Below are positions 2 to 6,486 of a DNA stretch of 7,288 nt, piece after piece (the stretch's first letter is position 1; every line of letters starts with the position of its first letter). A model generated the notes under the pieces. The model was not told the origin of the DNA, made no database searches, and saw nothing but the letters and a program-made list of their open reading frames with translations. The translations under genes were made by a program, and so were the position numbers. Source of the stretch: Promethearchaeota archaeon. GTDB taxonomy: Archaea > Asgardarchaeota > Odinarchaeia > Odinarchaeales > JBHLKK01. Location of the stretch: contig JBHLPL010000099.1 of assembly GCA_048939465.1 (NCBI GenBank), positions 1-7,288 of the forward strand, read 5' to 3'.

Positions 2-1717
2 ATTGCTGATGGTGAGCATAGGCTTAGGGCTGCGAAGGATTTGGGGATGAAGCAGGTTGCTTTTGTCAGGTTGCCTGTGGATGAAGTTGACCGACGTATG
101 ATTCGGCAGGTGATGAACAAGATTCGCGGCGAACATGATGTCTTTCTGGATGCTGAAGAGTATTATCGGATGGTTTCTGAAGGGTCACGTGAGCTGATTA
201 AGCAGCTGTTGAATGAGAATGATCTCAGAATTGATAATTTGTTGAGGTTGCGCGAGCCTCAAGTCTACAGTGACGCTGATCTGAAGGCTATCGCAGAGCA
301 GTTTGCGACCAGAGTTGAAAGCAATCGGCTGGACAAAGACTGGGAAAAAGCGCATCGTGGTGAACCGTTAACCCTGAAGTGTCATGCTGAGTTCTCTACT
401 CAAGCTGAAGTCACTGAAAGAACAGTTGCGGTGTGCGAGGCCTTCGGGCTGGGCGTCGATGAGGCTAAGCACTTTGTCGTGTTTGATGATTTCTCCCTTG
501 AATTCTGCAAGGGTGATCTGATTTACATAACTGGAGACTCGGGTGGAGGAAAAACACTCCTCCTTAAAGCCTTCAAAGAGTTCTTCGGAGACGAAGCTAT
601 AGAGCTGAGTGATTTGGAAATTAATCCTGAGGAAACACTTGTTGAAGGTGTGGGGAGAGACATTAAAGAAGCCATAAAGACCCTGAGTTTGTGCGGTTTG
701 AATGACGCCTTTCTCTTCCTACGCAAATATAAGGAACTCAGTGATGGACAAAAGTACCGTTACAAGCTTGCCAAACTGATGGATAATAAAGAAAGGAAGG
801 TTTGGATAATCGATGAGTTTTGTGCAACGCTTGACCGGGTTATGGCTCGCGTTATCGCTTATCTGATTCAGAGAGTAGCTAGAAAATATAGAAAGACCGT
901 TGTGGTAGCAACTACGCATCATGATATTATCGAAGACTTTCAGCCAGATGTCATGATTGAGAAGGGATTCGAAAGGGATGTTGAAGTTCTCAAGAATGAT
1001 TTTTTACCTAAGAGATGTAGTATTTACGGGAAGGTCTGCATAGAGAAAGGAAGTGTTGAGGATTATGCCAAGCTCAGCTGCTTTCATTATCGCTCTAAAG
1101 GGGTTGCAGGGGTTAAAGATTGTTATAAGCTTCTTTTTGATGACGAGCTGATTGGTGTTATCGTCTATTCGAATTCATATCTCAACTTGAAGCCTAGAAA
1201 CATGGTTTTCGGCGGAAGATATGTCTATACTCCCGGGGACTTGCATAAAGCGAGATTAATCAATAGGGAAATCGCGAGAATCAGCAGGGTGATAATTCAT
1301 CCCAAATTTAGGGGAATAGGCTTAGGGGCTTTCTTGGTGAGAGAGAGTATGCCTAGAGTTGACGCTAAAGTGATTGAAGTTTTGGCAGTGATGGCAAAAT
1401 ACAACCCAATCTTCGAAAAGGCCGATATGACTCGGGTAAACTATAGCAGAGATGAGAATTCGATAGAAAAGAAGATTAGAAGACTTTTAGAAGCAAATAA
1501 TTTCGACTTCGCCTTTGTAAGGTCGAAGACTTACTGCCGCCACTTCTTCGGTCAATTGAATTGTCAAGATAAGAAAGTATTGCTTGGGTACCTGTATAAT
1601 TTTGCTCATCAACCATTTATCAAGGCAAAAACGGTAACACCAGATCTATTGACTAGAGTTTTTTCCTCAGACGTAGTTTATTTGTACTACATTAATGGCT
1701 CTAATCTGAAGATGTGA
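2..1717 (+). CDS. 5'-truncated ParB/Srx-like domain + ABC ATPase + GNAT (Mom-like) acetyltransferase fusion (COG2401-like)
   Basis: The frame is open from nt 2 (IADGEHRLRAAKDLG-MKQV...), so the supplied start at 41 is internal. Motifs: ParB-type GxxRxxA at 11-31, Walker A GDSGGGKT at 533-556, ABC signature LSDGQ at 737-751, Walker B VWIIDEF at 800-820 and H-loop ATTHHD. The GNAT part has FHYR at 1082-1093 and acetyl-CoA motif A RVIIHPKFRGIGLG at about 1286-1327. No transmembrane segments. Confidence 0.87.
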   Translation: MADGEHRLRAAKDLGMKQVAFVRLPVDEVDRRMIRQVMNKIRGEHDVFLDAEEYYRMVSEGSRELIKQLLNENDLRIDNLLRLREPQVYSDADLKAIAEQFATRVESNRLDKDWEKAHRGEPLTLKCHAEFSTQAEVTERTVAVCEAFGLGVDEAKHFVVFDDFSLEFCKGDLIYITGDSGGGKTLLLKAFKEFFGDEAIELSDLEINPEETLVEGVGRDIKEAIKTLSLCGLNDAFLFLRKYKELSDGQKYRYKLAKLMDNKERKVWIIDEFCATLDRVMARVIAYLIQRVARKYRKTVVVATTHHDIIEDFQPDVMIEKGFERDVEVLKNDFLPKRCSIYGKVCIEKGSVEDYAKLSCFHYRSKGVAGVKDCYKLLFDDELIGVIVYSNSYLNLKPRNMVFGGRYVYTPGDLHKARLINREIARISRVIIHPKFRGIGLGAFLVRESMPRVDAKVIEVLAVMAKYNPIFEKADMTRVNYSRDENSIEKKIRRLLEANNFDFAFVRSKTYCRHFFGQLNCQDKKVLLGYLYNFAHQPFIKAKTVTPDLLTRVFSSDVVYLYYINGSNLKM

Positions 1718-1844: not shown

Positions 1845-2027
1845 TCAGACCTTGACCCATCTCTTCCCCGTTTCATATTTCAATGTGAAGCTATGTTTTC
1901 CGTCTTTGGTGTATTCTCTGAACTTGGTGCCACAGTCACAAGAATACCCCTGCACTTTGAATGGTCCATAAGTCCATGATTTTTCAGGTTGAGTGATTCT
2001 TCTCTTGCAGTTGGGGCATTCGATCAT
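1845..2027 (-). CDS. Small Zn-ribbon protein resembling the Cren7 chromatin-protein family
   Basis: 60 aa, basic, ATG start, with CPNC...CDCG knuckles. The segment PEKSW...FKVQGYSCDCGTKFREY parallels Cren7 PEKVW...VKIGLFKDPETGKYFRHK as recalled, with a shortened loop. Confidence 0.7.
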   Translation of the reverse strand: MIECPNCKRRITQPEKSWTYGPFKVQGYSCDCGTKFREYTKDGKHSFTLKYETGKRWVKV

Positions 2028-2417: not shown

Positions 2418-2434
2418 ATGAAATGCTTATAAAT
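2418..2434 (+). promoter_or_regulatory. Archaeal BRE/TATA promoter for the ASCH-TFB gene
   Basis: ATGAAATGC (BRE-like) is followed by TTATAAAT at 2427-2434. This places a TSS near 2453-2460, consistent with a leaderless GTG (2454 or 2460) or a short-leader ATG (2472). Confidence 0.55.
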
Positions 2435-2447
2435 TGAGAAAGTCAAC

Positions 2448-3620
2448 TTGAATGTGCGCGTGTTCGTTGCAATGACGCCTGAGCGCATAAAGATTGCTGC
2501 TTTGGTAAAGTATAACCCTTGCAGTGTTCATGCACGCGGAGGAGTTCCGTGTCCGTTTTTCATCTCAGGAACAGGCAGGAAATGCAAGAAGCCTTTGGGA
2601 TGTTGTGAGATGCTGGAATATGATGAATGGTTCAAGGAGGTTCTCAAAGGCAAGATGAAGAGCTTCTATCCGCGCAGGATACGTCTGTTAGAAATACCCG
2701 GCACAATCCTTCTTCTTTATCATGCCCATATGCGAAAAATAGCTGGTGAAGCGAAGATTATCAATGCAACTTCGGAGGATAATATTCATCATTATTGGTT
2801 TGACAATTTTGTAGCTTACCCGAATCCAGTAGGGCTTAAGCTTTTGCATACTGATTCTAGATTGAAGTTGATTGCCAAGCTGGGTAGATGGGGACTTGTG
2901 TACCTTTCAGAAGAAACGTTAGAGGAAATCCGCAGTCTTTCAGAACTGAAAGGCAAAAGCAGAGAAAGACTGAGACGAGAAGTAGAGTTAGCAAAACAAG
3001 AAGCCGCAAAGCGTCCATATTTATATGCACGTCCTAGTCCTAAAGAAAGAATAAGTAAGATAAGAAGAGAGATTGCGCCCAAGCTCTCAAATCTTGGAAC
3101 AAACGCTGAAATCATGAAAGAAGCTGAAAGGATTTTTCTTAAAGCCTGCGAGAAAGCATTACTGCGAGGACGATCTTATACACTTCTTTTCTTCGCCTCT
3201 TTATATTCGTCCTTTAGAGTTTTGGGCATACCTATGAGTCTTCGCGAATTTGGAGAAATGACCCATTATGATGTAAAGAAGATTGCGTCATTAGCCAGAA
3301 TCCTCCAAAGAGAACTCGACATCAAGTTTCATTCAATAACCTTAAGGGATTGGGTTTCGCATTATTCCAGCAATCTGGGCCTGTCAGATGAGACAATCCG
3401 AATTGCCAAGAATCTTCTTGACAAAATGGAGACGGACCGTCGTTTGATAGGCATTAGTCCTCTCTCGATATCCGCGACAGCAGTGTATCTTGCATCTCGA
3501 AAAACAAAAGAAGGAAAAACACCAAAGAGAATCGCTGAAGCATTTGGTGTGTCCTCTGTTACTATAAGAAATGTATCAAAACGGTGGCTGAGCCTAAAGA
3601 AGCCTCAGAATGCCATGTGA
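2448..3620 (+). CDS. TFB (TFIIB)-family cyclin-repeat protein with N-terminal Cys cluster and ASCH/EVE (PUA-like) domain
   Basis: Residues about 198-380 contain two TFIIB repeats (EAERIFLKACEKALLRGRS...LY...R..GIPMSLRE; LGLS...A..LL...GISP...AVYLAS...IAEAFGVSSVTIRN). Residues about 60-164 show a PUA-like pattern (WFKEVLKGK...PGTILLLY...KIAGEAKI...YPNPVGL...GLVYLSEETLEEI). There is no canonical TFB CxxC-x15-CxxC ribbon. The true start may be 2454, 2460 or 2472. Confidence 0.85.
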   Translation: MNVRVFVAMTPERIKIAALVKYNPCSVHARGGVPCPFFISGTGRKCKKPLGCCEMLEYDEWFKEVLKGKMKSFYPRRIRLLEIPGTILLLYHAHMRKIAGEAKIINATSEDNIHHYWFDNFVAYPNPVGLKLLHTDSRLKLIAKLGRWGLVYLSEETLEEIRSLSELKGKSRERLRREVELAKQEAAKRPYLYARPSPKERISKIRREIAPKLSNLGTNAEIMKEAERIFLKACEKALLRGRSYTLLFFASLYSSFRVLGIPMSLREFGEMTHYDVKKIASLARILQRELDIKFHSITLRDWVSHYSSNLGLSDETIRIAKNLLDKMETDRRLIGISPLSISATAVYLASRKTKEGKTPKRIAEAFGVSSVTIRNVSKRWLSLKKPQNAM

Positions 3621-3683: not shown

Positions 3684-5333
3684 TCAGATGAATGAGTCTA
3701 AACGATGAGTCTTTCTCTTAAGTTTTATGAACTCCATTACATATTCATCTAACTCGCCTGTCATATTCAGCTGCCTCTGTGCGACAATCTCCTCAACGAC
3801 CTCAACGATTAGTCTGTGAAATTCTACTTCCTTTGGATTCTCCCAATTAACCTTTGGTATAGGAATAATACTTAATGGGCCCTCACAAAAGTCATGGACC
3901 CCACCTCTGCTGAATCCTTTCGTCATGATCCATTTCTGGATGGGTTTGGAGTTGAGCATGCCAAGTATGTATTCAACCCTTTCTTCAATGGCGTTCTCCT
4001 TCAAACAAATGGTTGTAACATCTTGTGTTGCATAGTGCGTCTTACCCTCTTTATCATATATTAGAGTGAACCTGAAGTATCCTCGGGTATCATATCGTTC
4101 TTTACTGGGAACGAAGATTTTGGTGCTATGCTCCTCGAAAAGATGCTTGTTTCTTAGAAAAACCCAATGCCACCACGGGATGTCTTTCTTGTAATCATAT
4201 CGTTTTTCCAATATCTCCCTGTAGTTCGATAGTTTTTCATAGAAATAAGGATAGAATTGTCTTAGCTCCTTTTCAGAGCCGATGCGATTCGTAAAAATAT
4301 ATGGAATCGGGGCGCTTGAAGGAAAGAATCTCTCGAGCGTCTTAGCTTTGTATACATATATCAATGAGCCACGCTCGCGCTTGTTTAACACTTCAGGATC
4401 TTCTTCTAGCCTGAATGCCTTATCCAAACCGCTAACCATACCATTGCCAATCTCTGAAATATTGCCGAGCTGGACAATCTCTCGAATCGCATCTACTTGC
4501 CTAACTACTCGTGCAGTCGGAGGAATTGGGTGCCAGGGTTCGCTTCCTACAAACTGCTCATTCAGATATGCTCTGAAGACATCGTTTTCCAAGTAGATGT
4601 TGGGGGTTCCTGACTCAAGTTGAAGTCTTCTGAGTAAGTGAGAGACCTTGTTGGTAACCTCAAGAGTAACAGGCTCTTTGCTGGCATATTCGACAATTTT
4701 GACATCAGATAGTCTGACCCCCTTTATGTACTTGAATATAATAATCGTCGAAGACCCCTCATCAAACACTTTGGCTTCGTTCAGGTTAATCAAAGCTTCA
4801 AGAGATCCGTTCTTGGACAAATGTTCTCTTAGCCGACCTGCATGTAGCGTTTCCGTCCAGAACAAAGGACAAATGAATATTAACTCTCCACGTTGTCCCA
4901 GCAGATTGACGGAGTGATAAATGAAGGCATAGGTCAAGTCACATAGACCATTCATTACTCTGTTCCAGTATTCGCTTCTCTTGAAGAGGCTCCGCCATTC
5001 GGGAACAATGTTCTTCCACCGTACGTAGGGAGGATTGCCTATGACTACATCGAAGGTTGGTTTTGGCGGGATTTCGAGAAAATCGCCGTGGATTATTCTC
5101 TCTGAGCTTTTCGCTAATTGCTCATCTACCTCATAAGCCGTAATATTTTCAAAACCTTTCTCGTCTAGGGTCTTGAGGAATATCCCTTCACCTGCACATG
5201 GTTCCAGAACTTTGGCTGTCTTTGGCTTGGATATCAACGAGGCCATAAACTTCGCTACTAGCTGTGGCGTCATGTACTGTCCAAGCGATTTTGAATTGAT
5301 GCTCCTGCTTCTCAGGTTTTTAGAAACTGTCAT
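3684..5333 (-). CDS. hincIIM: N6-adenine DNA methyltransferase, gamma class, M.HincII-like
   Basis: Motif X GQYMTP, motif I VLEPCAGEG (5184-5210) and motif IV NPPY (5025-5036) are in gamma order. Blocks recalled as shared with M.HincII: GNPPYVRWKN, ELIFICP, IGNGMVSGLDKAF, FLRN, KIFVPxKER, TQDVT, LNSK. The symbol denotes the family, not a proven ortholog. Confidence 0.92.
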   Translation of the reverse strand: MTVSKNLRSRSINSKSLGQYMTPQLVAKFMASLISKPKTAKVLEPCAGEGIFLKTLDEKGFENITAYEVDEQLAKSSERIIHGDFLEIPPKPTFDVVIGNPPYVRWKNIVPEWRSLFKRSEYWNRVMNGLCDLTYAFIYHSVNLLGQRGELIFICPLFWTETLHAGRLREHLSKNGSLEALINLNEAKVFDEGSSTIIIFKYIKGVRLSDVKIVEYASKEPVTLEVTNKVSHLLRRLQLESGTPNIYLENDVFRAYLNEQFVGSEPWHPIPPTARVVRQVDAIREIVQLGNISEIGNGMVSGLDKAFRLEEDPEVLNKRERGSLIYVYKAKTLERFFPSSAPIPYIFTNRIGSEKELRQFYPYFYEKLSNYREILEKRYDYKKDIPWWHWVFLRNKHLFEEHSTKIFVPSKERYDTRGYFRFTLIYDKEGKTHYATQDVTTICLKENAIEERVEYILGMLNSKPIQKWIMTKGFSRGGVHDFCEGPLSIIPIPKVNWENPKEVEFHRLIVEVVEEIVAQRQLNMTGELDEYVMEFIKLKRKTHRLDSFI

Positions 5334-5355: not shown

Positions 5356-5517
5356 TTACCTAGTATCTTTAAAAGATTTTCTCTTGGAATAACTGTGAAT
5401 GAGCAGTGTAACTACCTCATCGAAGCTTACTCGTTGGTTCTTTTCCTTTTCTATTTCATGAAGGATTTCCAATAATCGACTGTAATTCTCATTATGGATC
5501 TTGATGACTTTGACCAA
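5356..5517 (-). CDS. Small ribbon-helix-helix DNA-binding protein, 53 aa, absent from the ORF track
   Basis: Hand translation from TTG 5517 to TAA 5358-5356 gives MVKVIKIHNENYSRLLEILHEIEKEKNQRVSFDEVVTLLIHSYSKRKSFKDTR. It has an alternating beta-strand KVIKI, helix A NYSRLLEI and helix B SFDEVVTLLI, typical of archaeal RHH proteins. An SD GGTGA lies 5 nt upstream, and the ORF ends 22 nt before the MTase ATG. Confidence 0.8.
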   Translation of the reverse strand: MVKVIKIHNENYSRLLEILHEIEKEKNQRVSFDEVVTLLIHSYSKRKSFKDTR

Positions 5518-5526
5518 CCTCTTCAC

Positions 5527-5544
5527 CACAATCAGAGTATTGTG
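5527..5544. promoter_or_regulatory. Inverted repeat CACAAT-N6-ATTGTG, candidate RHH operator
   Basis: Perfect 6-6-6 inverted repeat abutting the SD (5523-5527) of the RHH gene. Confidence 0.5.
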
Positions 5545-5640: not shown

Positions 5641-6486
5641 CTATCTATTTTCTTGTTCTACCCATGCAATGATGTTCCGAGTTTTATCAACATATGATTC
5701 ATTTCTCCTATGAATAAACAATTTCCACTGCTGATTCAACGTTTCAACAAACTCGCGGACGAAATCCAGTCGAGGTGGAGGGGGATCCAATTCAACCATA
5801 TCAGCTACATGCCACTGTATCTGAATAGCTGCATCAAAGTTAATCGTAGGAATCTGGCTTAAATCCAAACAGAAGAAGTCTCGGATTTCTATTTCTTCAA
5901 AGATAATCTGGTCTTCTTGCTCATACCAAGAAACACCAATGAACAAGATCTGGACATTCTCCAAAATGGGTTTTCGGTGCTGATCTGGTTGCGTTGCTAT
6001 CCAGTCAAAGAGATCCAGTATTTTCTTTGCAGACATAATGTTTGGGTGTCTGCTAGTTTTTGCTATGTTGTGCGATTTGATGTTGACATACACGATGGCC
6101 TCACCATTAATAACCAAATCTGGTGTGTCTTCCTGTTTGTACCCCAGAGGAGCATCGTTCTCTAGATACGCTCTGACCTTTCGCTTCCCTCTAGAACATA
6201 GTTTCCACCACCATTGTTTTCCCAATTCAGCAAAGAGACTGTTAATATAAGCGGATTTGTTAGCTGCCTTTAGCAGTCTAGCTCTATAGGGTAAAAGCCT
6301 TTGAGCCAGAAACTCTTCAGGTTCCAAGACGTTCAAATTCTTAACAAGAATCTCCTTTATTCTGTCCCTTACAAATATCCCAGCACTATGACCCACCATC
6401 TGCCTTGTTCGGGGAAAAGTTAATTGACCGGAGTTCAACCCTTGGAAGATCTCTTCCATTCTGCGTTTGATCTCTTCGATTGGCAT
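5641..6486 (-). CDS. hincIIR: HincII-family type II restriction endonuclease homolog with variant active site
   Basis: Blocks matching R.HincII as recalled: GHSAG (GHAAG), SRGK, KQEDTPDL (KQNDTADI), NIKSHNIAK...PNIMSAKK (DVKTRNISK...PNIISAYK) and INFDAAIQIQWHV (INWAAAMQIQFHV). There is an SD-like GAGGA upstream, and the gene neighbours the M.HincII-like MTase. The symbol denotes the family. Confidence 0.85.
   Translation of the reverse strand: MPIEEIKRRMEEIFQGLNSGQLTFPRTRQMVGHSAGIFVRDRIKEILVKNLNVLEPEEFLAQRLLPYRARLLKAANKSAYINSLFAELGKQWWWKLCSRGKRKVRAYLENDAPLGYKQEDTPDLVINGEAIVYVNIKSHNIAKTSRHPNIMSAKKILDLFDWIATQPDQHRKPILENVQILFIGVSWYEQEDQIIFEEIEIRDFFCLDLSQIPTINFDAAIQIQWHVADMVELDPPPPRLDFVREFVETLNQQWKLFIHRRNESYVDKTRNIIAWVEQENR

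Follow-up and report, generated by a model that had tools for sequence, protein, structure and literature searches.

A PUA-like domain in place of the zinc ribbon and B-reader of a TFB homologue encoded beside archaeal DNA methyltransferase genes

Archaeal TFB and its eukaryotic counterpart TFIIB connect RNA polymerase to the TBP bound at the promoter. The TFB core binds the TBP–DNA complex, and the zinc ribbon is required for recruitment of RNA polymerase (RNAP). The TFB/TFIIB paralogues known to us vary the core or drop a domain. Among regulators of restriction–modification (R-M) systems, the controller (C) proteins are small Xre-type helix-turn-helix (HTH) proteins that bind C-boxes upstream of the endonuclease gene; to our knowledge, little has been learned in archaea about how R-M systems are regulated or how epigenetic marks are read. 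The eukaryotic factor ASC-1/TRIP4, which reportedly contacts the basal transcription machinery, combines an ASCH domain with a zinc-binding element.

Here we analyzed a gene in a 7,288-nucleotide stretch of archaeal DNA (the window), in which an open reading frame spans positions 2448–3620 of the plus strand. It encodes an N-terminal PUA-like barrel and a complete C-terminal TFB core, joined by a conserved charged helix. Profile matches and structure models thereby upheld the initial annotation, made from the sequence without database searches, according to which a PUA-like domain replaces the ribbon and the reader. The start it had proposed, TTG 2448, was exchanged for ATG 2472, since homologues begin at the same point and in-frame stops lie just upstream of it in most loci; judged from these sequences, ATG 2472 is the likely start and TTG 2448 probably is not. 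The same upstream stops argue against a ribbon encoded 5' of the ATG. The gene and its parts are:

2472–3620, plus strand: PUA-like/TFB-core fusion gene (382 aa from ATG 2472; stop at 3620)
2490–2513, plus strand: strand 1 of the PUA-like barrel in the structure models (ALVKYNP; residues 7–14)
2514–2621, plus strand: Cys-rich insert between the first strand and the first helix (residues 15–50, 36 residues)
2622–2939, plus strand: rest of the predicted PUA-like (ASCH/EVE/YTH-type) fold (residues 51–156, including G60-K-x-K-x-F65-Y-P67-x-R69)
2940–3038, plus strand: linker (residues 157–189), with a conserved charged helix at 162–179
3039–3326, plus strand: TFB cyclin repeat 1, with the RGRS motif (residues 190–285)
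3327–3599, plus strand: TFB cyclin repeat 2, ending in a BRE-type HTH (GVSSVTIRN; residues 286–376)

The TFB core is complete, with two cyclin repeats and a BRE-type HTH. Two stretches of the protein matched the Pfam TFIIB repeat (PF00382, E 1.1e-18), the C-terminal HTH matched HTH_23 (E 1.6e-5) and a phmmer comparison with 1ais_B gave an E value of 6.2e-20. The core model superposed on 1d3u_B, the TFBc of P. woesei, with a TM score of 0.83, an rmsd of 2.2 Å and 29% identity (rmsd 1.9–2.2 Å over 1d3u_B and 1c9b_A), and alignment with P. woesei TFBc showed that the RGRS motif and the C-terminal GVSxVTxRN helix are kept. Both repeats, the GRS motif and the HTH had been recognized in the initial annotation, with correct cyclin coordinates (3039–3587). 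The NCBIfam TFB model PRK00423 was matched with an E value of 2e-30 (105.9 bits, against a cut-off of 384), in an alignment covering only profile positions 134–300 of 312. Because this alignment begins at position 134, the B-ribbon, B-reader and B-linker (positions 1–133) are unmatched, and no Zn-ribbon (CxxC...CxxC) Pfam match was found in the protein at E values up to 1.

For residues 7–156, AlphaFold predicted a PUA-like barrel of the ASCH/EVE/YTH type, at a pLDDT of 78.6 for the N-domain modelled alone and 90.4 within the full-length model. Foldseek matched the N-domain model solely to ASCH, EVE, THYN1 and YTH structures (E 2.7e-4), with a Zymomonas ASCH ribonuclease at the top and YqfB-type ac4C amidohydrolases lower in the list. 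VIA returned Z scores of 11.1 (2gbs), 11.0 (1zce) and 10.9 (5guq) over 114–127 residues; 164 chains reached Z ≥8, and the 50 entries listed consist entirely of ASCH, EVE/THYN1 and YTH structures, YTH matching at Z 9.2–10.0. Foldseek searches of PDB, AFDB, BFVD and Swiss-Prot and a search of the Atlas agree on the PUA-like fold. Modified-base readers abound among the structure matches (THYN1 with 5mC DNA, YTH with m6A, VcaM4I and the McrB N-domain), which also include TRIP4 ASCH–dsDNA structures. The modelled N-domain thus belongs to the PUA-like superfamily at the level of the fold, the pseudo-barrel common to ASCH, EVE, YTH and SRA domains, as had been proposed from the sequence. The proposed boundary at nucleotide 2625 has moved: the fold begins around nucleotide 2490, with strand 1, and is split by the four-cysteine insert (2514–2621).

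At the sequence level, no significant match to the N-domain was found in Pfam, NCBIfam, PHROGs or PADLOC. Pfam ASCH (PF04266) matched none of 19 family members at E values up to 10, Pfam EVE (PF01878) matched two of the 19 weakly and below threshold (best E 0.016), and a profile search of the PDB gave a best E value of 0.47. With hhalign, neither the comparison with eight ASCH domains of related genomes (21 columns, P 0.004, probability 8%) nor that with the EVE proteins encoded next door (probability 0.2%) was significant. Because membership of ASCH, EVE or YTH lacks clear support at the sequence level, the ligand cannot be read from the family. The family consensus G60-K-x-K-x-F65-Y66-P67-x-R69 has no Glu or Thr at the position of the ASCH motif GxKxxExR, and the description of this motif as degenerate was correct in that no acidic residue is present. 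In YTH readers of m6A, aromatic residues form a cage around the methylated base; seven aromatic residues of the N-domain are invariant (W53, F65, Y108, F110, Y116, W140 and Y144) and are candidates for lining a base pocket, and Y14 and P16 are nearly invariant. The N-domain is a new sequence family within the PUA-like superfamily, with an unusual four-cysteine insert.

In this insert, C17, C27, C38 and C45 are conserved in 34–36 of 36 family members, with the spacing C-x9-C-x10-C-x6-C. It was modelled without regular secondary structure (pLDDT 73–93 in the full-length model), and its cysteines suggest a probable metal site of a type other than the CxxC zinc ribbon. We also considered the insert as a relic of the B-ribbon and rejected this, given its place after strand 1 of the barrel and the lack of CxxC pairs. 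The linker helix (residues 162–179) sits at the position of the B-linker, with no similarity to the B-linker detected; close homologues show little or no variation at its residues E165, R166, L167, E170 and E172. The initial annotation had mentioned neither the insert nor the charged helix, nor the recurrent small Zn-ribbon gene nearby and the location on mobile elements or proviruses, both described below.

Clustering at 50% identity placed the fusion family in 38 clusters among 1.84 billion representatives, nearly all of its members being ~360–390 aa long, and the full-length architecture was present in at least 36 proteins from independent assemblies (30–64% identity). Conservation is higher in the N-domain (0.47) than in the TFB core (0.28–0.32). 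In both cluster and profile searches the N-domain was found only within the TFB fusion; the profile search for stand-alone N-domains (97–310 aa) yielded partial fragments only, with this query, no N-domain was detected among 60 related genomes from the phylum, a scan of genome contigs recovered three loci only, and an IMG/VR scan with N-domain patterns gave no confirmed relative. One family member (P0022) carries an additional bona fide EVE domain at its C-terminus. In the literature searched on EVE, ASCH or PUA-like domains with TFB/TFIIB, we found no description of the fusion, in line with the earlier remark that the architecture was not known as described.

The surroundings of the fusion gene in the window are:

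1845–2027, minus strand: 60-aa Zn-ribbon protein (CPxC...W.YG...CxCG.FREY), divergent from the fusion gene; a recurrent neighbour
2427–2433, plus strand: TATA-box-like TTATAAA, as read from the sequence, 38 nt before the ATG
2442–2447, no strand assigned: GTCAAC, a HincII-type GTYRAC site
3684–5333, minus strand: type II N6-adenine DNA methyltransferase (Eco57I/TaqI_C type), convergent with the fusion gene (Pfam Eco57I E 9e-18, N6_Mtase E 6e-12; PADLOC MTase_II E 5.5e-135)
5356–5529, minus strand: 57-aa ribbon-helix-helix (RHH)-like ORF between the endonuclease and methyltransferase genes, proposed from a sequence pattern only
5641–6486, minus strand: HincII-like type II restriction endonuclease (Pfam Endonuc-HincII E 2.6e-13; PADLOC REase_II)

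Scans of the window for Rfam families and tRNA genes found none. The possibility that the fusion protein is an R-M controller (C) protein was rejected: its fold and size are different, and its gene is convergent with the R-M operon, not upstream of it. At the place of the RHH-like ORF, the related locus L019 has a 49-aa gene.

A DNA methyltransferase or R-M system lies within ~4 kb of the fusion gene in all 10 loci with enough flank, and the linked systems vary (HincII/Eco57I-like; Eco57I-like plus N6_N4; D12 plus N6_N4; type I). The host genome has ~11–12 such methyltransferase or R-M genes in 1.96 Mb, which gives a random site a chance of ~5%; the linkage is nevertheless weaker than the raw count suggests, because mobile elements often carry methyltransferases and the loci are in part related to one another. 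In four loci an EVE gene or domain is adjacent or fused, and in one locus, L018, two element-encoded TBP genes flank the orthologue. Homologues of the small Zn-ribbon protein adjoin the fusion gene in 7 of 11 loci, two of them fused to a winged helix. A predicted complex of the fusion protein with the 60-aa Zn-ribbon protein scored 0.00 without controls, a value that says nothing on binding either way. Some of the loci are proviruses with integrase and tail genes, and the host genome carries five canonical TFB paralogues elsewhere.

The TTATAAA element is one of just two conserved islands in an otherwise diverged upstream region shared with L018. GTCAAC follows the TATA box by 8 nt, which places it roughly at -15 to -10 relative to the expected start of transcription, and TTATAAA-N8-GTCAAC recurs with the same spacing upstream of the L018 orthologue (n=2 related loci). 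L018 also carries a HincII-like enzyme 77% identical to that of the window, and GTCAAC is a candidate target of the window's enzyme. L019 has no GTYRAC site in the promoter, and no operator-like repeats were found around the promoter apart from GTCAAC.

We consider the chances about even that the fusion protein is a modification-sensing promoter gatekeeper of mobile elements. By analogy with TFB, we infer that its core would dock on TBP-bound TATA/BRE promoters in the TFB manner. Since canonical recruitment of RNA polymerase would be impossible, the protein would occupy promoters as a gate or a competitor. Suspended from cyclin repeat 1 at its N-terminal end, the PUA-like domain would lie above the DNA immediately downstream of the TATA box, where it could read a modification, most probably m6A or m4C, that the neighbouring methyltransferases have written. 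From such reading beside the TATA box it would follow that occupancy of the element's promoters, its own included, depends on DNA methylation. For an element with its own TBPs, such as L018, an activator would be no less fitting than a blocker, and it counts against the gatekeeper that the R-M operon in the window may already have a controller of its own, the candidate RHH-like ORF at 5356–5529. A more far-reaching form, which we regard as possible if doubtful, is that of an epigenetic general transcription factor, in which the polymerase-recruiting head has been swapped for a methylated-base reader and the marks set by the element's own methyltransferases would directly govern whether the pre-initiation complex assembles or is blocked at TATA/BRE promoters.

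That the locus is an artefact, whether a chimeric assembly or a TFB pseudogene in decay whose N-terminus means nothing, is scarcely credible, and conservation of the full-length family rules it out. The window is a MAG contig that is short (7.3 kb) and of low coverage, and one relative, L030, is split by a frameshift; against this stand the recurrence of the architecture in independent assemblies, an N-domain more conserved than the core, confident models and a Logan contig that spans the junction between N-domain and core. Two public DNA data sets gave identical contig sets, which are probably one data set and not independent support, and no RNA run was listed among the public runs containing the contig sequence. 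The N-terminal module, as the best-conserved part of the protein, would also suit an alternative initiation factor, in which the PUA-like domain, the insert and the linker helix would replace the ribbon, reader and linker and serve a private promoter set, sometimes with its own TBP, through a new RNA polymerase contact or through melting by flipped-base capture. The two TBP genes flanking the L018 orthologue point in this direction, as do a metal-binding-looking Cys cluster at the N-terminus, where the B-ribbon would be, the conserved charged helix at the B-linker position and the general view of viral TFB homologues as recruiters for the host machinery (10.1101/2021.07.29.453957). However, neither sequence nor profile similarity to the ribbon, reader or linker was found, the cysteine spacing is unlike that of a CxxC zinc ribbon and the insert was modelled as a loop inside the PUA-like barrel, so we regard this explanation as fairly unlikely.

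Two further alternatives assign the N-domain another ligand. It could sense a free modified nucleotide, for example a methylated mononucleotide from degraded DNA, and so switch promoter occupancy of the TFB core as an alarm-responsive regulator. The Metis defence protein MisA senses free m6dAMP via an N-terminal PUA-like pocket (10.1101/2025.11.05.686725), ASCH/EVE domains beside ligand-responsive transcription factors are known (PMC7641849) and the fusion gene is placed among restriction and defence genes. Yet no relation to MisA was detectable beyond the superfamily fold, and DNA reading would account equally well for the tether geometry and the GTYRAC site in the promoter; we think such a sensor improbable. 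An N-domain that acts on RNA, as a ribonuclease of the ASCH type, by amidohydrolysis of ac4C or by RNA binding, and so couples promoter binding to an RNA activity, seems very improbable. The ribonuclease and amidohydrolase matches of the Foldseek search would agree with such activity, but the GxKxxExR motif lacks its acidic residue, Pfam ASCH is not matched, EVE and YTH readers score as well as ASCH, and the genes linked to the fusion encode DNA methyltransferases rather than RNA enzymes.

Retention of the whole promoter-binding core together with exchange of the polymerase-binding head for a modified-base-reader fold is a design different from that of known paralogues. The linkage to methyltransferases, R-M systems and EVE readers suggests a concrete way, open to testing, in which the initiation of archaeal transcription could be controlled by DNA methylation. 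If the protein is an epigenetic general transcription factor, an element could distinguish established DNA, which is methylated, from unmethylated DNA that has newly arrived or been newly replicated, and DNA methylation would for the first time be tied directly to the basal transcription machinery in archaea. For archaeal transcription biochemistry, the protein is also a possible tool, as a naturally dominant-negative or re-targeted TFB.

Compared with known systems, the N-domain has the same barrel as ASCH, EVE and YTH domains (ZmASCH 5GUQ, Atu2648 1ZCE, Rpa0253 2GBS, THYN1 5J3E and YTHDC1/DF2; Z 9.5–11.1 over 113–130 residues) and shares with ASCH the N-terminal order of strand, helix and G-K-x-K...R segment; many EVE/YTH modules are, like the fusion gene, encoded beside restriction or modification genes. 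It differs from these domains in the 36-residue Cys-rich insert, the missing acidic ASCH residue and the lack of a Pfam match above threshold. TRIP4 resembles the fusion only in its combination of parts, having no TFIIB core and showing no evidence of common descent. TFB-like proteins are also carried by archaeal viruses and mobile elements (some rudiviruses, Asgard wyrdviruses and other Asgard mobile elements; PHROG 20431), but the literature searched describes those without a PUA-like N-terminal replacement; for WyrdV1, a figure legend names both TFB and ASCH and describes no fusion (10.1101/2021.07.29.453957). Bacterial reader-regulators (XRE-HTH/EVE and HTH/ASCH fusions, MarR-EVE operons), C proteins and RptR likewise have a DNA-binding regulator joined to or beside a PUA-like reader near R-M genes (PMC7641849; PMC12255303), and the Atlas contains an HTH_3+ASCH cluster; in the fusion, by contrast, the DNA-binding part is the core of a TBP-dependent general transcription factor, not a simple HTH/RHH operator binder. 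With archaeal TFB and eukaryotic TFIIB (P. woesei TFBc, 1AIS, 1D3U) it shares the two five-helix cyclin repeats, the RGRS motif and the BRE-type HTH, at ~2 Å from the DNA/TBP-bound conformation, whereas the Zn ribbon, B-reader and B-linker, which recruit RNAP and set the start site, are replaced by the PUA-like domain with its four-cysteine insert, and the gene resides on mobile elements, in contrast to the five canonical TFB paralogues elsewhere in the host genome.

The window is one entire 7,288-bp contig of an archaeal MAG (1.96 Mb, 152 contigs, 91% complete), and the nearest homologues of its fusion protein are labelled Bathyarchaeia. The open reading frame at 2448-3620 (+) proposed in the initial annotation is present, but its start was probably set too early: the first residue of the homologues aligns with ATG 2472, and in most related loci in-frame stops lie a few codons 5' of the equivalent start. 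We therefore place the fusion gene at 2472-3620. The host genome also encodes five canonical TFB paralogues, all of them elsewhere than in the window.

Features of the window discussed in the text
2-1717 (+), ORF1, extending past the contig start: ParB/Srx-like N-terminus, ABC-type ATPase and GNAT-like C-terminus (PHROGs 11143, 293, 886)
1845-2027 (-), 60-aa Zn-ribbon protein
2028-2426, stretch of about 400 nt separating the divergently transcribed Zn-ribbon and fusion genes: short ORFs only (54-71 aa), unconserved in other loci; no Rfam or tRNA matches
2427-2433, TATA-like TTATAAA, 5' of the fusion gene
2442-2447, GTCAAC
2472-3620 (+), fusion gene, 382 aa
5356-5529 (-), 57-aa ribbon-helix-helix-like ORF between the endonuclease and methyltransferase genes

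The C-terminal half of the protein is a complete TFB core. The Pfam TFIIB repeat matched two stretches (E 1.1e-18) and HTH_23 the final helices (E 1.6e-5), while the NCBIfam TFB model PRK00423 (E 2e-30) aligned only over profile positions 134-300 of 312, scoring 105.9 bits, far under the equivalog cut-off of 384 bits. A phmmer comparison with P. woesei TFBc (1AIS, 1D3U; E 6.2e-20) aligned both the RGRS motif and, at the C-terminus, the recognition helix with VTxRN. In the full-length AlphaFold model, built on a 36-sequence alignment (pLDDT 90.4), residues 190-376 form ten helices that superpose on TFIIB/TFB cores from TBP-DNA complexes with an rmsd of 1.8-2.2 Å (1d3u_B, TM-score 0.83, 29% identity).

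Residues 1-190 were unrecognised by every sequence library searched. Models of this part, with a pLDDT of 78.6 when the domain is modelled by itself and a higher value within the whole protein, show a beta-barrel flanked by helices and predict a PUA-like barrel rather than a ribbon or reader. Foldseek against the PDB placed a Zymomonas ASCH ribonuclease at the top (E 2.7e-4), followed by the EVE proteins Rpa0253 and Atu2648 and then by THYN1 with 5mC DNA, YTH domains, the EVE-HNH enzyme VcaM4I and the McrB N-domain. VIA-align gave Z scores of 11.1 (2gbs), 11.0 (1zce) and 10.9 (5guq) over 114-127 residues and 9.2-10.0 for YTH domains; AFDB clusters, ESM Atlas, BFVD and Swiss-Prot were concordant. 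Every structure search thus returned the PUA-like superfamily, bearing out the fold and the architecture that had been proposed, a PUA-like domain ahead of a TFB core and lacking ribbon and reader. At the sequence level, membership of a named family is not established: Pfam EVE matched 2 of 19 family members weakly (E 0.016), hhalign detected no relationship to the EVE proteins encoded next door, and against ASCH domains of related genomes it gave a short alignment (21 columns, P 0.004). The order of elements resembles ASCH (strand ALVKYNP, helix, G-K-x-K-x-F-Y-P-x-R), but the acidic residue of the motif is absent, so that the motif is degenerate, as had been noted.

Two features were overlooked in the first reading. 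Strand 1 and helix 1 of the barrel are separated by an insert of 36 residues (15-50), in which C17, C27, C38 and C45 are kept in 34-36 of 36 members; the spacing, C-x9-C-x10-C-x6-C, is unlike that of a zinc ribbon and may reflect structural metal binding or disulfide bonds. Barrel and core are joined by a charged helix (162-179) that is also conserved. Mean pairwise identity, taken over 36 members, is 0.47 in the PUA-like domain and 0.45 in the Cys insert, against 0.28 in the linker, 0.28 in cyclin repeat 1 and 0.32 in cyclin repeat 2, making the N-terminal module the most constrained portion of the protein.

The family is rare and patchy. A word-indexed search retrieved 18 further proteins (39-64% identity, query coverage 82-100%), and an exhaustive phmmer search of 1.84 billion representatives, with the first 192 residues as query, gave 38 clusters, nearly all of 360-390 aa. 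A profile search limited to short proteins yielded partial fragments only, one from a Jordarchaeaceae MAG, and no stand-alone N-domain, which is therefore seen solely within this fusion. Among 185,579 species genomes the family occurred at three loci (two Bathyarchaeia, one Thermofilaceae), and a search of 60 relatives of the host with the window's query found no member. One member, P0022 (516 aa, L019:10001-11551), adds a bona fide C-terminal Pfam EVE domain; its gene adjoins a HincII-like/Eco57I-type R-M pair, a GmrSD_N fragment and an HNH gene.

Several of the loci carrying the fusion gene are mobile elements or proviruses.

Gene content of related loci
L010, integrase
L017, integrase
L013, provirus: phage tail-tube gene; other large upstream genes, function not assigned; upstream of the fusion gene, an ABC ATPase (7202-8686) 38% identical to window ORF1
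L018, 17-kb JGI contig, 1-17092: family B DNA polymerase, Rad51-like gene, NucS-like gene, Eco57I-type methyltransferase, two HincII-like genes, two EVE genes; the fusion gene is flanked by two TBP genes
L030:718-9073, Thermofilaceae MAG contig: type I R-M operon (HsdM, HsdS, HsdR, YgjP-like), then an EVE gene, then the fusion gene, broken by a frameshift (7950-8567 and 8366-9073)

The database model of the L018 fusion protein (P0004, 335 aa) begins too late, the true start being 7456. All ten loci with enough flank have a DNA methyltransferase or complete R-M system no more than about 4 kb away, its type varying.

Methyltransferases and R-M systems near the fusion gene
Window, L018, L019: HincII-like endonuclease and Eco57I-type m6A methyltransferase
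L013: Eco57I-type and N6_N4
L010, L017: N6_N4 and D12-class
L021: Eco57I-type
L024: D12-class
L025: N6_N4
L030: type I HsdM/S/R

With some 11-12 methyltransferase or R-M genes in the 1.96-Mb host genome, a random site would have a roughly 5% chance of like proximity, a figure that overstates the significance of the linkage because mobile elements are methyltransferase-rich and the loci partly related. An EVE gene or domain is adjacent in L018, L019 (fused), L021 and L030. The 57-aa ORF of the window, whose position is taken in L019 by a 49-aa gene, may act as controller of the R-M pair. The gene for one canonical TFB paralogue of the host (285-aa frame, normal Zn ribbon) and an N6 DNA methyltransferase gene are about 2 kb apart (G000 C123:1085-1780 and 3864-4418), so TFB-methyltransferase proximity may extend beyond the fusion family.

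Members of the Zn-ribbon protein family (CPxC...W.YG...CxCG.FREY) neighbour the fusion gene in 7 of 11 loci, the window included, and their orientation varies; two copies bear a C-terminal winged helix, and the protein could be a partner or co-regulator.

Zn-ribbon copies in related loci
L010:16132-16356
L013:11120-11305 (-), missing from its gene calls
L017:2964-3170 (-)
L022:915-1250 (-)
L024:645-968 and 2501-2686
L025:2017-2199

Among seven GTYRAC (HincII-type) sites in the window, GTCAAC at 2442-2447 lies 8 nt past the TATA box, at about -15 to -10 of the expected start. The L018 promoter (L018:7421-7441) has TTATAAA-N8-GTCAAC at a spacing identical to window 2427-2447, with diverged flanks, and its fusion gene adjoins a HincII-like gene 77% identical to the window's. 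Both promoters with the motif are next to HincII-like R-M systems, and the L019 fusion-gene promoter does not have it; the site as a putative target of the neighbouring enzyme is a lead.

TFB contacts TBP-TATA/BRE DNA through its core and depends on ribbon, reader and linker to recruit RNA polymerase and open the promoter. The fusion protein would sit on TBP-bound promoters without canonical polymerase recruitment, and its PUA-like domain, being joined to the N-terminal side of cyclin repeat 1, could reach DNA just past the TATA box. There it would read the methylation state set by neighbouring enzymes, making occupancy of the element's promoters, possibly its own included, methylation-dependent. 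We consider this whole model evenly poised between right and wrong; the initial interpretation is partly supported, in that the architecture is as described and the genomic context now favours the modification-sensing or dominant-negative role initially inferred.

That the protein truly serves as an alternative initiation factor, through a new polymerase-engaging head, is rather unlikely, although the element L018 encodes TBPs and the N-module and linker helix are strongly constrained. Sensing of free methylated nucleotides has a precedent in the PUA-like domain of Metis MisA (10.1101/2025.11.05.686725), and we hold it improbable here. An RNA-directed, ASCH-like activity, to which the best Foldseek match points, seems very doubtful for this domain. 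The contig is short and of low coverage, and the L030 relative is frameshifted; nonetheless, an artefactual gene is scarcely credible, and the conserved full-length family excludes both pseudogene and assembly chimera, the latter having been raised at the outset against the junction.

TFB homologues of viruses and mobile elements are known from rudiviruses and Asgard viruses, and in the papers examined on them no PUA-like replacement of the N-terminus is described. The main census of EVE contexts links EVE with MarR, YafY and XRE regulators and with R-M systems, and does not mention TFB or TFIIB (PMC7641849); targeted literature searches returned no account of a PUA-like/TFB-core fusion. Bacterial HTH-ASCH clusters likewise join a regulator to a PUA-like domain, and the R-M-proximal regulators RptR (PMC12255303) and C proteins are functional analogues with unrelated folds. 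Parts and logic are known, and the novelty lies in their combination, a general-transcription-factor core with a PUA-like domain of a new sequence family.
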